A stretch of DNA of 64,000 bases from Opitutales bacterium. Lineage in GTDB: Bacteria > Verrucomicrobiota > Verrucomicrobiia > Opitutales > UBA2987. The position numbers were made by a program. Each line of letters starts with the position of its first letter. Within the stretch, counting starts at the first letter, position 1. The DNA lies in NCBI GenBank assembly GCA_965226885.1, contig CBDDEL010000010.1, positions 160,001 to 224,000 of the forward strand, given 5' to 3'. Of the stretch, positions 36,001 through 39,000 are shown piece after piece.

Positions 36001-39000
36001 GGCTACATCCTTGAGTAATACCCAGTCCGTCGGCCAATGAATGTTAGCCTCCAAACAGGTGCCGTCGATCAGGCAAATGGTGGGGTCAATCGGCTTGTCC
36101 AATCCCACCTGCCGGGCCAGAAGGGCATCGCCCACCACCTCAGTCAAGGTCCGGTGCAAGGCCCTCAACTGCTCTTCGCTGAAAAACTTCGAGGCCCGCT
36201 CCAGGGTGCTTTTGGAGATGCCCCTGATGCCATCGATCTGCCGGACACGGCAAAAGTCGGCCAACAGATCGCTGCTGCCCAGAGCCCGCGACAAATGCCG
36301 AAACGAAATCCCTCCGAGCAGACGGCCCAGCGTATCCATGCGCAGTGCCTTGATGGCAAAACTGGCCCGCTGCCGCCGGGCCTTTAGACCCATTGGCGGC
36401 CACCCCTCCAAGGCCAGCTCAATGGCCTGCGATTCCACCTCCGAGTCGATCAGCAGCCGATCGATTCGATCAATGGTGGCGCGGAAGTTATCGTAATCGA
36501 GGCACCGGTCGACCACAGTTAAAGCTGGACGCAGGAGGCATTGGATGGCTATATTTTTCATAGAAAGGGCTATATTGATTTTCGCTAACTCAATTATAGA
36601 ACCCTTTTTTGGCCGGATCGAGCAAAAACTTGCTCTTTCCGGCTCTTTTTATCAACGTCATCCAGTTGACTATAAAATCTTTATATTTTTGGGACAGCCT
36701 CTAATCTACAAATTACTATAGAGTAAACTCGATATTGGAGGCATCATCATGGAAGTTGAAAGAATCATCGCGATAGTATTTTCCCACCTTATGTTTATCC
36801 TCGGGTTGTCCGAACTCATTCAGGCCAAAACCTGGACCCGCTATACTGAAGAATTTCTCAAGTCCGAGCATTTCGCCATCATACTGACCCTTACCTGGCT
36901 GCCCTTCGGACTAGTCATTGTCAACGGACACAACATCTGGGTCATGGGGCCGCCTGTCATTATCACAATTTTGGGCTGGGTAATGGTGATAAAATGCGCT
37001 CTCTACCTGCTGGTTCCACAAGCCATGCTCGGCCTGGCCAAAAAAATGAGGCCAGCCTACCCAACATTATTCAGAATTTCCGGCGTGGGTCAGATCATTT
37101 TTGGAACTTTCGTCATGCTCGACACCTACAATCGATACGGCTGAAATTAAGCGATTCAGCCTTTATTAAAATGCATTCCGATGGCAACGGTTATGGTTTC
37201 GCATACGAATCCGCAAAAAAGCGCTGCTACTCCGATTGTAGCGCCGGACAATCCAGTGTATGGCAACAATATTAAAGCGAGCAATATCGCGATAATCCGG
37301 GAGGGTCCGCTTGGGGCCAGGAATTTTGTTTGGCGTTTCTTTAGCGCGACGCCGTGAAAATAAGATCGGGTGGCAACCACGATGGGGAATAAGGCAAAAA
37401 TGATTAACGGCATCATACAGCCATCTACAATATTGCCACTTAATGCCATCAAATCTATGAGGATGAATTCCCTAACCGGGGTCCAAAAGGCAAGGGCCAT
37501 TGAGCTGAATGAAATCAGTCCGCATAGACAGATGAATTTTTTGATTTGCGACAAACTGTTGGGCTCATTTTTAAAAGCGGAGGCCAAACTGCGAAGCTCG
37601 TTCAGCCACCCATAAGGAATATGACCGAGGGAATAAACAACGGCTAGGACAGCCATCGCTTCAACCCCGTCCGGCCCGCGGGAAATAAAGAGATTGACCG
37701 TTGGCCGGCTGATTCCTTGAACGCTCATGGTCAAAGCCAAGGGCCAAAAAAAGCGCAAGATATAGCCATAGGAAAGTTTCCTTTCCGCTTCCATAAAGAG
37801 CTGTTTTGGTGAAAATCGAAGATTGCCAAGATACGTTACTATAAGATGTGAACAAGCGCCCGTATAAGTTGCCAGGATCGGCAGATGTATCGGGTTATTC
37901 CGTATAAATTCGACTTTAAGCGATATGAGCACGGTTAGAATGCTGACCCCAATTCCGATAAACGTTGCCAGAGCAGTAACCTCAGTGCGATGAGCGCGAA
38001 GGAGTAAACCGGAATAAAAACGGATCAACCCCTCAATAAACGGGTAGGGGATGAAACATAGAAAAACATACCGTATGATTGAGGTCAGGCCGACATCCAG
38101 CCGATGTAAATTTTGGATAAACAGGACGCCCAGAGGAGTAAGCGCCAAAAGGGCCAGAACAGCCCCCATGAGGCAGCAGCCGATCAAAACAAAGTTTAGA
38201 ATTTTCCCTTTTGATTGATGATTTGAACCGAGGACCAAAACGAGCTGGTTCAACTGGCCAAAAGGACTGATAATGAACGCAGTTAGTATCCAGGCAATTC
38301 CAAAACCGGCCAGCGTTTGGGCCGCATTCGGCAAGCGCGCCATGCCGCTATTAACAATCGGTCCCCCCAATTCATAAATCACCAATGTTAGAAATAACGG
38401 AAATATAAAGCGTGTGAAACGACTGTAGAGCATTTCAAATCAATTGCTCACATTTCCTTAAACCAACGTTTACATGCATTTACTGTTGTATTGTCTGGTT
38501 GGTTCGATTTCACCTAAAAATTTAGTCATGCGACTTCTTCGGCGGAACCGGTATCTTTGTTGAAGCGCATGGATACAAGTTTGGAGATGCCTTTTTCCTG
38601 CATGGTTACTCCGTAAATGCTGTCGGCAGATGCGATGGTGCGCTTGTTGTGCGTTATGATAATGAACTGGGAGTATTTGGTGAAATTCTGCAGCATGGCC
38701 ACAAAGCGCCCGATGTTGGCGTCGTCGAGAGGCGCATCAAGTTCGTCGAGCATGCAAAAGGGGCTTGGCTTTACCATGTAAATGGCAAATAGAAGGGCCA
38801 CCGCAGTCATCGTTTTCTGGCCGCCGCTGAGTAAGGCTAATGTTTTTAAGCGGGTGCCGGGCGGACGGGCGATAATGTCGATGCCGGATTCCAGAACATC
38901 CTCTTTATCGATTAATTGGAGGTCGGCATAACCGCCCCCGAAAAGAGCGTCGAAGGTATAGGCGAAATTTTTCCGCACCTGGGCAAAGGTATCTTCAAAT

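Follow-up and report, generated by a model that had tools for sequence, protein, structure and literature searches.

The window analysed here, a stretch of 64,000 nucleotides from an Opitutales bacterium (assembly GCA_965226885.1, contig CBDDEL010000010.1, positions 160,001 to 224,000 of the forward strand), contains a gene whose product is a true bacterial ANKH (SLC62) protein; genes of this kind number several hundred in bacteria. Judged from alignments and trees, the encoded protein is part of the bacterial group that lies nearest to animal ANKH. Here it is proposed, with moderate confidence, that this protein would export a small anionic metabolite of the citrate/dicarboxylate or nucleotide type, and that its gene was probably gained laterally.

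Gene, locus and family assignment

The gene is intact, its window translation being an ORF of 425 aa with an ATG start and zero internal stops (Table 1). The protein matches PF07260 in the Pfam search (E 6.1e-41, 141.3 bits versus a cut-off of 22) over protein residues 3-318 and profile positions 10-344 of 344, and the six-frame search of the genome gave 142.9 bits for the same family. PF07260 is the sole Pfam family found at E<=0.01, and the NCBIfam search returned no family for the protein. BLASTP against sturgeon ANKHB (496 aa) aligns residues 3-419 with sturgeon residues 10-447, with 148/438 identities (34%) and E 1e-72. The animal ANKH/Ank protein is classified as SLC62A1 (TCDB 2.A.66.9) and falls in the 'MATE' fold class (PMC9333335).

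Table 1. Features around the ANKH-family gene; positions count from the first nucleotide of the window
Feature	Position	Strand	Evidence or remarks
ANKH-family (PF07260; SLC62 / TCDB 2.A.66.9 type) membrane-transporter gene	37156..38433	minus	ORF, Pfam, BLASTP, predicted fold, trees
AT-rich spacer, smc to ANKH gene	38434..38525	minus	92 bp, sequence read
smc, upstream same-strand neighbour	38526..42239	minus	SMC_N E 1.1e-72 and SMC_hinge
Hydrophobic ORF, 131 aa	36749..37144	plus	translation; convergent with the ANKH gene, 11 bp between stop codons

The initial annotation had described the protein as a full-length homologue of animal ANKH, encoded by a gene with a GC content of 0.47 between smc and a 131-aa gene. 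The end-to-end alignment and Pfam match bear out the first of these claims, both neighbours are in place, and the measured GC is 0.467. This value and the GC3 of 0.505 lie in the lowest 2.4% and 3.7%, respectively, of 2572 ORFs of at least 300 aa from the same genome, a set that includes some spurious frames. The order smc-ANKH-orf131 is kept in one congener, where the 131-aa ORF belongs to the same cluster and occupies the same position; its only Pfam match is DUF2065, with 18.9 bits, below the cut-off of 24.3. A consensus scan gave 8 promoter-like sites versus 4.0 +/- 2.4 in shuffled sequence and 5 terminator-like sites versus 2.9 +/- 1.9, numbers near those of the shuffles, and no good-scoring site fell in the spacer between smc and the ANKH gene. 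The spacer has no convincing terminator or promoter, and co-transcription of the ANKH gene with smc is possible. The neighbours in the window (smc, the small membrane ORF and an IS) are uninformative on the function of the ANKH gene.

Predicted fold and conserved polar core

The AlphaFold2 model of the protein (pLDDT 89.2, pTM 0.87) has helices throughout, and in it the protein adopts the 12-helix MATE/MOP fold, with two six-helix lobes. Foldseek against the PDB gave 55 matches at E<=1e-3, of which those listed were all MATE, MurJ or Wzx proteins, the best being human MATE1 with a TM of 0.77. There was no ANKH entry among the matches listed by Foldseek (PDB entries released up to April 2026), and the sequence search of the PDB (2026 copy) gave 0 matches at E<=1.

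A total of 26 alignment columns are identical in at least 90% of 19 bacterial and at least 80% of 19 eukaryotic rows, including Q239, R243, P244, N247, R252, W276, R356, T369, R379 and E412. By residue-class conservation in both kingdoms there are five basic positions (R243, R252, R281, R356 and R379) versus one acidic position (E412), so that the polar core common to bacterial and eukaryotic ANKH is, as aligned, net basic. Within the bacterial ANKH-clade proteins, 51 columns are invariant in an alignment of 28 rows. Helix-1 position 25 is occupied by Pro in the window protein and its nearest relative and by Gln or Asn in 84% of bacterial and 89% of eukaryotic rows, and therefore the substrate or the coupling may have shifted in the lineage of the window protein.

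MATE pumps use conserved acidic residues for cation coupling. The top structural matches are MATE exporters (human MATE1, NorM, PfMATE and plant MATEs), as would be expected if the protein were a pump of the classical MATE type that expels drugs or toxins by cation coupling; however, the identity to MATE exporters is 13-18%, the MatE profile (PF01554) has no match at E<=0.01 in the protein, and the conserved core is basic. The source genome also has six MatE matches at other loci and already contains two MatE-type genes, and a drug efflux function is considered very improbable.

Of the six human disease positions that can be aligned, four have the same residue in the window protein (L244, C331, F377 and G389 in human, corresponding to L232, C304, F349 and G361), and the two that differ are S375, which is A in the window protein, and M48, which is T. 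These positions were taken from PMC13356900 and mapped through sturgeon numbering, seven of the seven that were checked carrying the expected residue in the sturgeon protein. The L244S mutant of human ANKH is described as transport-dead and correctly targeted in PMC7371198, a study that compared spent-medium metabolomes for HEK293-ANKH. According to the literature, the compounds released through animal ANKH are ATP/NTPs, citrate, malate and succinate (PMC7371198; PMC13664135), cellular release of ATP/NTPs and citrate being established for human ANKH only (PMC7371198).

Because the shared core is net basic and the L244 site is conserved, export of an ANKH-type anion by the window protein is plausible. 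The protein would act as a 12-helix secondary transporter of the inner membrane, through which a small anionic metabolite, such as citrate, other di-/tricarboxylates, or nucleotide/phosphate-bearing anions, would leave the cytoplasm. This export would most likely serve the bacterium's own metabolism or overflow. We infer the anionic substrate, the outward direction and the coupling from homology; the identity to characterised animal ANKH, at only 34%, counts against this reading.

Relatives, distribution and gene neighbourhoods

Before tree building, 62 of 148 representatives were removed as fragments, fusions or sequences with less than 88% query coverage. FastTree on 95 rows recovered a 45-row clade with a support of 99, composed of 19 bacterial rows (the window protein included) and 26 eukaryotic-type rows, and an IQ-TREE quick search with a PMSF mixture on 40 hand-picked rows recovered a 27-row clade that joins the window protein with eukaryotic ANKH at 99, having the eukaryotes together at 100; these are quick-search supports and not bootstraps. 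A tree in which the 13 bacterial rows are constrained to group together has the better likelihood (lnL +6.56) and survives the AU test (p-AU 0.69). The clade includes eukaryotic ANKH from animals and choanoflagellates as well as proteins from Latescibacterota, Gemmatimonadota, Chloroflexota and one Opitutales family. On these trees, the bacterial ANKH clade is placed as sister to all eukaryotic ANKH, with bacterial outgroups. A recent gene copy from host to symbiont is rejected on the same trees, in which the bacterial clade is not nested inside animals.

The phylogeny suggests deep bacterial roots for the family of animal ANKH. A literature search on bacterial ANKH proteins found nothing relevant, and such roots are not mentioned in the literature consulted on ANKH evolution; one of these sources reports that no invertebrate Ankh was found on Ensembl (PMC11417794).

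Among 41 genomes of relatives, eight have ANKH matches. An even sample of the phylum gave matches in 5/401 genomes, only the source genome matching strongly and the other four with E 1e-5 to 5e-8; strong matches in this sample are confined to one family. In the family of the window's organism, 5/8 genomes match with the source genome left out, and in its genus 2/4; the genus count of the initial annotation agrees with this, and its family count of 4/8 does not. A single peptide-pattern search found 79 loci from different species, which makes at least 79 species-level copies and upholds the earlier remark that the gene is not unique to this genome. One of these copies, from a record titled Litorilinea aerophila, is 44-45% identical to the window protein; L. 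aerophila is a cultured, moderately thermophilic species. Furthermore, an exhaustive search of 1.84 billion representatives gave 1122 clusters at E<=1e-3, of which 532 reach E<=1e-10 and 72 reach E<=1e-30. The description of the family as very rare in bacteria holds as a share of species, but the family itself is not small. The patchy distribution and the atypical base composition make it probable that the gene entered an ancestor of this Opitutales family by lateral transfer; it would since have been retained, at the same locus in the congener. The low GC could instead reflect a weakly expressed membrane protein.

The neighbourhoods of 72 homologous loci contain recurrent gene clusters, those annotated being small-molecule enzymes and transporters. 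A thiamine-diphosphate enzyme of the PRK06154 family (733 bits versus a cut-off of 607) is at most two genes away in 31/72 loci, a count that overstates independent events because many of the loci come from close relatives. By phylum, the PRK06154-type neighbour is found in 21/28 loci of Latescibacterota, 3/7 of Gemmatimonadota and 5/23 of Chloroflexota, in differing gene orders. Amidohydrolase, GFO/IDH/MocA oxidoreductases and SBP_bac_5 binding proteins are further recurrent neighbours, and a second group of loci has a CuyA-like PLP enzyme, a class-V aminotransferase, an SGL lactonase-like protein and a sodium:solute symporter. The PLP enzyme is closest to D-cysteate sulfo-lyase CuyA, with 361.8 bits, below the cut-off of 450.

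The recurrence of these neighbours, for the PRK06154-type enzyme across three phyla and in varied order, would fit a catabolic role, in which the transporter exports an anionic product (an oxo-acid or sulphite) or imports or exchanges an organic N or S substrate, and does not release citrate or ATP. Such neighbours are, however, absent in the window and its family, with a thiamine-diphosphate enzyme within two genes in none of five Opitutales loci and no PRK06154-type enzyme above the cut-off in the source genome (best 224.7 bits versus 607); the kinship among the 72 loci and the below-cut-off CuyA-like match also count against it. For the window protein such a role is judged unlikely; since an anion exporter could also fill it, it in part only makes the preferred interpretation more specific.

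The same neighbourhoods bear on a flippase of the Wzx/MurJ type, which would move a lipid-linked glycan or another lipid head group over the inner membrane. The predicted fold is shared with MurJ and WzxE (TM 0.56-0.76), one UniRef cluster member carries the automatic name 'Polysaccharide biosynthesis protein C-terminal domain-containing protein', and two genes of lipid head-group metabolism, for a CDP-alcohol phosphatidyltransferase and for HpnL, are found at a distance of 2.3-4.7 kb in both the window and the congener. These lipid genes, however, are on other transcription units, past the convergent ORF and an IS, and none of the 26 annotated recurrent neighbour clusters of the 72 loci is a glycosyltransferase or polymerase. 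In addition, the MurJ and Polysacc_synt profiles have no match at E<=0.01 in the protein, the source genome has a canonical MurJ (324 bits) elsewhere, separate from the ANKH gene, and the nearest characterised relative carries soluble anions. A flippase is accordingly regarded as improbable, and anion export remains the preferred function.

Possible host association and comparison with known systems

The signs of host association of the source organism are indirect. The source genome has 109 near-full copies of one IS, amounting to 5.6% of its length, and the sequencing runs in which the genome is best represented carry three coded organism names, from three studies, in place of 'metagenome', both of which fit a host-restricted life; additionally, 6/79 homologous loci come from isolate series treated in the literature as sponge symbionts. 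No RNA run was among those listed. The host-associated organism of the initial annotation stands to the extent of these signs. Ankyrin repeats were discarded as a symbiont marker, their 10 matches at about four loci being unremarkable and 5/14 control genomes also having matches.

It had been proposed that pyrophosphate, citrate or ATP, released by the symbiont into the tissue of its host, alters matrix or mineral deposition there. Animal ANKH governs mineralisation through exactly these anions, and the IS expansion, the run filing and the sponge-symbiont series would agree with such a role. Against this, homologues are also found in groundwater-titled records, a Tara Oceans scaffold and a planktonic candidate species, and short pieces about 90-97% identical are present in marine and sediment metagenome runs of low share, where pieces of 42-246 bases with a depth of about 2-6 inside the ANKH gene are too little to name a habitat. 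Moreover, an inner-membrane exporter delivers to the periplasm only, and the sister position of the bacterial clade to all eukaryotic ANKH excludes a recently copied host gene. No feature of the gene, of its neighbours or of its relatives indicates an action on host matrix or mineral, the window gene has no tie to a host effect, and this part of the initial annotation is left with a very low probability.

A broader version takes the animal-nearest bacterial ANKH clade as a symbiosis trait, concentrated in bacteria inside marine invertebrates, with citrate- or nucleotide-type anions released into the host, feeding it or tuning its calcium/mineral chemistry, and with a transfer of the family between bacteria and the ancestral lineages of animals and choanoflagellates. 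This would draw on the sister clade with bacterial outgroups, the sponge-symbiont isolate series, the IS expansion and the organism-named runs; we consider it quite improbable.

ANKH is a human disease gene, responsible for craniometaphyseal dysplasia and calcium pyrophosphate deposition, and its substrate was reportedly revised only in 2020. As there is no ANKH structure in the PDB, the earlier argument for a small prokaryotic model is sound. The small bacterial homologues keep the conserved core and the L244 site and could be far easier to express, assay and solve than the human protein, and they would make the transport mechanism of ANKH directly testable. The window gene is one of many usable homologues, with a value that is mainly that of a structural and biochemical model.

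Compared with animal ANKH, the window protein belongs to the same Pfam family, has the 34% identity over the entire membrane core and contains the common helix-7 motif F-x-W-P-L...Q..SRP..N, and it is predicted in the bacterial inner membrane, unlike the animal protein. The first 9 and the last ~49 residues of animal ANKH have no counterpart in the BLASTP alignment, and the P5 gout-type site is within these terminal parts. The window protein stops at the last helix and lacks the cytoplasmic C-terminal tail of the animal type (sturgeon residues 448-496 are unmatched), which is an animal addition outside the Pfam domain.

The MATE structures (human MATE1 9r1f; plant 5xjj and 5yck; barley HvAACT1 9l7l; NorM) superpose with TM 0.71-0.77 over about 440-460 columns, but at 13-15% identity, with no Pfam MatE match and with a conserved core in the window protein that is basic and not acidic. 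The MurJ/Wzx flippases (6nc9, 9g95 and others) have the same superfamily fold, in the TM range given above. More distant PF07260-like clades, from Phycisphaerae, Tectomicrobia and other Opitutales, have the same length and architecture with 22-29% identity and weak Pfam ANKH matches, and they fall outside the clade (support 99) that joins the window protein with eukaryotic ANKH. Inside this clade, the bacterial proteins from Latescibacterota, Gemmatimonadota, Chloroflexota (Caldilineaceae, Litorilinea) and the one Opitutales family are all PF07260 members with 38-89% full-length identity, and their gene neighbourhoods vary by phylum, with catabolic clusters elsewhere and smc in the window.

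The ANKH-family gene and its locus

The sole Pfam match of P0001, the product of the ANKH-family gene, at E ≤ 0.01 is ANKH (PF07260, E 6.1e-41), scoring 141.3 bits where the curated cut-off is 22 and spanning profile positions 10-344 of 344; no NCBIfam model matched, and a sequence search of PDB chains gave no match at E ≤ 1. BLASTP aligned residues 3 to 419 with sturgeon ANKHB (P0270, 496 aa) at 148/438 identities (34%, E 1e-72), which reproduces in substance the likeness to vertebrate ANKH reported in the initial annotation; the first 9 and last ~49 residues of the animal protein are without counterpart in P0001. 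The gene is real and intact and encodes a well-conserved bacterial ANKH-family transporter. Its GC (0.467) and GC3 (0.505) fall within the lowest 2.4% and 3.7%, respectively, of the 2572 ORFs of at least 300 aa in its genome, G000, which has an overall GC of 0.522.

A spacer of 92 bp separates the gene from smc upstream, and beyond orf131, on the other side of the gene, a CDP-alcohol phosphatidyltransferase and an HpnL-type protein are also encoded. Locus L091 of the congener genome G004 has a matching order (smc, ANKH, orf131, a mobile ORF, CDP-alcohol transferase, HpnL), and, since smc-ANKH-orf131 is common to both, the ANKH gene is older than the split of the two species. A promoter and terminator scan at the locus was uninformative.

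The HpnL-type protein (TIGR03476, 283 bits) is divergent from the 394-aa CDP-alcohol phosphatidyltransferase, which has a long N-terminal extension and weakly resembles inositol-phosphate transferases. The two genes are also paired in G004 and may make up a lipid head-group module. In L091, a 491-aa ORF of no Pfam family stands between the CDP-alcohol transferase and orf131, where the window has the IS; this ORF is multi-copy in G000 (two copies 97-98% identical on contig C17, pieces on C4). Mobile elements appear to insert preferentially at this site. Across window 36700-38900, two lineages of the locus co-occur in sequencing runs X2 and X5, from two different coded organisms, one near-identical (0-2 differences in 592-879 bases) and the other ~87% identical, differing at 130 of 991 and at 73 of 592 bases.

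Coordinates of the features discussed (window-relative unless a contig or locus is named)
Feature	Position	Strand	Remarks
ANKH-family gene	37156..38433	minus	uninterrupted ORF, ATG start, 425 aa (P0001)
smc	38526..42239	minus	same strand as ANKH gene, upstream
orf131	36749..37144		131-aa hydrophobic ORF, no clear family; convergent with ANKH gene
IS transposase ORF	35080..36561	minus	beyond orf131 as seen from ANKH gene
IS5/ISNCY-like element	34859-36748		beside ANKH locus; more fragments at ~20402-28166
HpnL-type and CDP-alcohol phosphatidyltransferase genes	32497-34857		divergent
491-aa ORF	L091 7235-8707		G004
In-frame-stop matches	C15:62507-64144; C14:151580-151768; C15:274688-274963; C15:101367-101777		contigs of G000
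PRK06154-type pairing	loci L013-L087		e.g. L017 9459-11099 type

Distribution and phylogeny

A word-indexed search with P0001 found 213 proteins at E ≤ 1e-3 among 7999 scored; among the matches listed, all 120 carry PF07260 at 38-100% identity, and those with a name belong to Latescibacteria, Litorilinea, Caldilineaceae, Gemmatimonadetes or Chloroflexi. An exhaustive search of 1.84 billion representatives recovered 1122 clusters at E ≤ 1e-3, of which 532 reach E ≤ 1e-10 and 72 reach E ≤ 1e-30. A scan with a single peptide pattern, in one genome per species, confirmed 79 loci, of which 30 are from Latescibacterota, 26 from Chloroflexota, 11 from Gemmatimonadota and 1 from Verrucomicrobiota, with 11 unplaced. 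Among 41 genomes of the window's relatives, eight had an ANKH match, which was strong in five of the eight genomes of its own family; two further matches in Opitutales were weak and fall in a distant clade. Five of 401 genomes sampled evenly from the phylum had a match, strong in G000 only. This patchy spread of ANKH-clade genes across four phyla fits lateral spread.

According to cluster look-ups, the eukaryotic members extend well beyond vertebrates. The best eukaryotic match is from the calcareous sponge Sycon ciliatum (E 1e-63), and other members come from a crinoid, an amphioxus, a brachiopod, a bryozoan, three choanoflagellates and one MMETSP transcript. The invertebrate members differ from the account in PMC11417794, whose authors report no invertebrate Ankh from Ensembl.

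Trees were built from 86 of 148 representatives (at least 88% query coverage, at most 620 aa) and nine named bacterial rows. FastTree placed P0001 inside a group of 19 bacterial rows, which forms with 26 eukaryotic-type rows a 45-row clade (support 99, tree supports here being from quick methods and not bootstraps), with more bacterial clades outside. A quick IQ-TREE search (LG+C20 PMSF, 40 hand-picked rows) recovered the bacterial and eukaryotic ANKH clade again (27 rows, 99), in which the eukaryotes form a single group (100). A constrained tree holding the 13 bacterial rows together was not rejected (lnL +6.56 over the free tree, p-AU 0.69), and the outgroup includes named Phycisphaerae and Tectomicrobia and ORFs from two Opitutales genomes. 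By these trees, P0001 is a member of the bacterial group that is sister to eukaryotic ANKH, in a family whose roots are bacterial.

Possible host association

The IS5/ISNCY-like element has 109 near-full copies (at least 1780 nt) in G000, 93 of them at least 98% identical, and its 241 aligned pieces together make up 305 kb (5.6%) of the 5.48-Mb genome; members of a subfamily, at 91-94% identity, are mainly on C17 and C4. IS expansion of this sort is a typical feature of bacteria that have recently become restricted to a host. One in-frame stop each was seen in an acetolactate-synthase-like ORF, two ankyrin-repeat ORFs and a MatE ORF of G000, which beside the IS expansion hints at pseudogenes. 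The runs that contain at least half of the window's words come from three studies and bear three coded organism names, and metagenome-labelled runs contain small shares only. Six of the 79 homologous loci carry the isolate prefixes SB06xx, IRC, APA and PNGco, series placed among sponge symbionts in Table 1 of PMC7883664 and in PMC11706023. These are some indirect signs that fit a host-restricted organism. Against a host function, however, some homologous loci are titled groundwater, one cluster joins a Tara Oceans scaffold with a protein named from Candidatus Moanabacter tarae, and contigs from marine and sediment runs contain short pieces ~90-97% identical. Host-directed export by P0001 is very improbable, and the action on host matrix or mineral proposed in the initial annotation, to which nothing found here links the protein, is speculation.

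Conserved residues, gene neighbourhoods and predicted fold

Aligning 19 bacterial rows together with 19 eukaryotic rows gave 26 columns that pass the identity threshold (at least 90% of the former and 80% of the latter). These include a helix-7 motif (F228, P231, L232, Q239, R243, P244, N247) as well as R252, W276, R356, T369, R379 and E412; by residue class, five basic positions are conserved in both kingdoms versus one acidic. The human disease positions in section 14 of PMC13356900 can be read on the sturgeon protein, since all seven carry the expected residue there. In P0001, L244, C331, F377 and G389 are identical (L232, C304, F349, G361), S375 is Ala, M48 is Thr, and P5 is without counterpart. 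The human L244S mutant is described in PMC7371198 as membrane-localised with ATP and citrate release abolished. Position 25 in helix 1 (window ~38359-38361) is Pro in P0001 and its closest relative, P0004, and Gln or Asn in 84% of bacterial and 89% of eukaryotic rows.

For human ANKH, PMC7371198 and PMC13664135 describe the release of citrate, succinate, malate and ATP/NTPs. Here it is proposed that P0001 is probably a secondary exporter of an ANKH-type anionic metabolite, with substrate class, direction and coupling as predictions. An anion site would be built from the conserved arginines of helices 7, 8, 10/11 and 11, and E412 may serve in coupling.

ORFs were called and clustered at 78 loci, 72 with the homologue present. 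The commonest neighbour, at most two genes away in 31 of these 72, belongs to the uncharacterised PRK06154 family of thiamine-diphosphate enzymes and is found near the ANKH-clade gene in three phyla, in differing orders. Amidohydrolase, GFO/IDH/MocA oxidoreductases and SBP_bac_5 binding proteins also recur. The first two often accompany the PRK06154 enzyme and ANKH-clade gene, together a possible unknown catabolic cassette. A second group comprises a CuyA/ACC-deaminase-like PLP enzyme (below cut-off), a class-V aminotransferase, an SGL-type protein and a sodium:solute symporter, and in the sister genus of the window's family the gene has a PhyH dioxygenase and a xanthine-dehydrogenase-type molybdoenzyme as neighbours. 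The main alternative, a role tied to such clusters in which P0001 exports an oxo-acid or sulphite-type product or takes up substrate, is a tentative reading of rather low probability; none of these recurrent partners stands beside the ANKH gene in the window, and no PRK06154 enzyme was found above cut-off in G000.

The AlphaFold2 model, from a 28-sequence alignment, is helical throughout (mean pLDDT 89.2, pTM 0.87), and Foldseek gave 55 PDB matches at E ≤ 1e-3. Every match listed is to a MATE, MurJ or Wzx transporter, at 13-18% identity, the best being human MATE1 (TM 0.77), and no ANKH structure is among them. That P0001 is a flippase is unlikely; none of the 26 annotated neighbour clusters, annotation covering recurrent clusters only, is a glycosyltransferase or polymerase, a pattern that speaks for transport of small molecules rather than flipping of glycans. 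Drug efflux, as in MATE proteins, is most unlikely. G000 has its own MurJ and MatE genes. In P0200, P0206, P0212, P0240, P0242 and P0243, distant family members, the C-terminal half (~225-409) is matched by the N-terminal half of P0001 (~3-175), because the two six-helix lobes are an internal duplication.

P0001 points to bacterial roots of the ANKH family and is one of many candidate models for a human transporter of unsolved structure. Its predicted fold agrees with the MOP/MATE class in which ANKH (SLC62A1, TCDB 2.A.66.9) is listed in PMC9333335.
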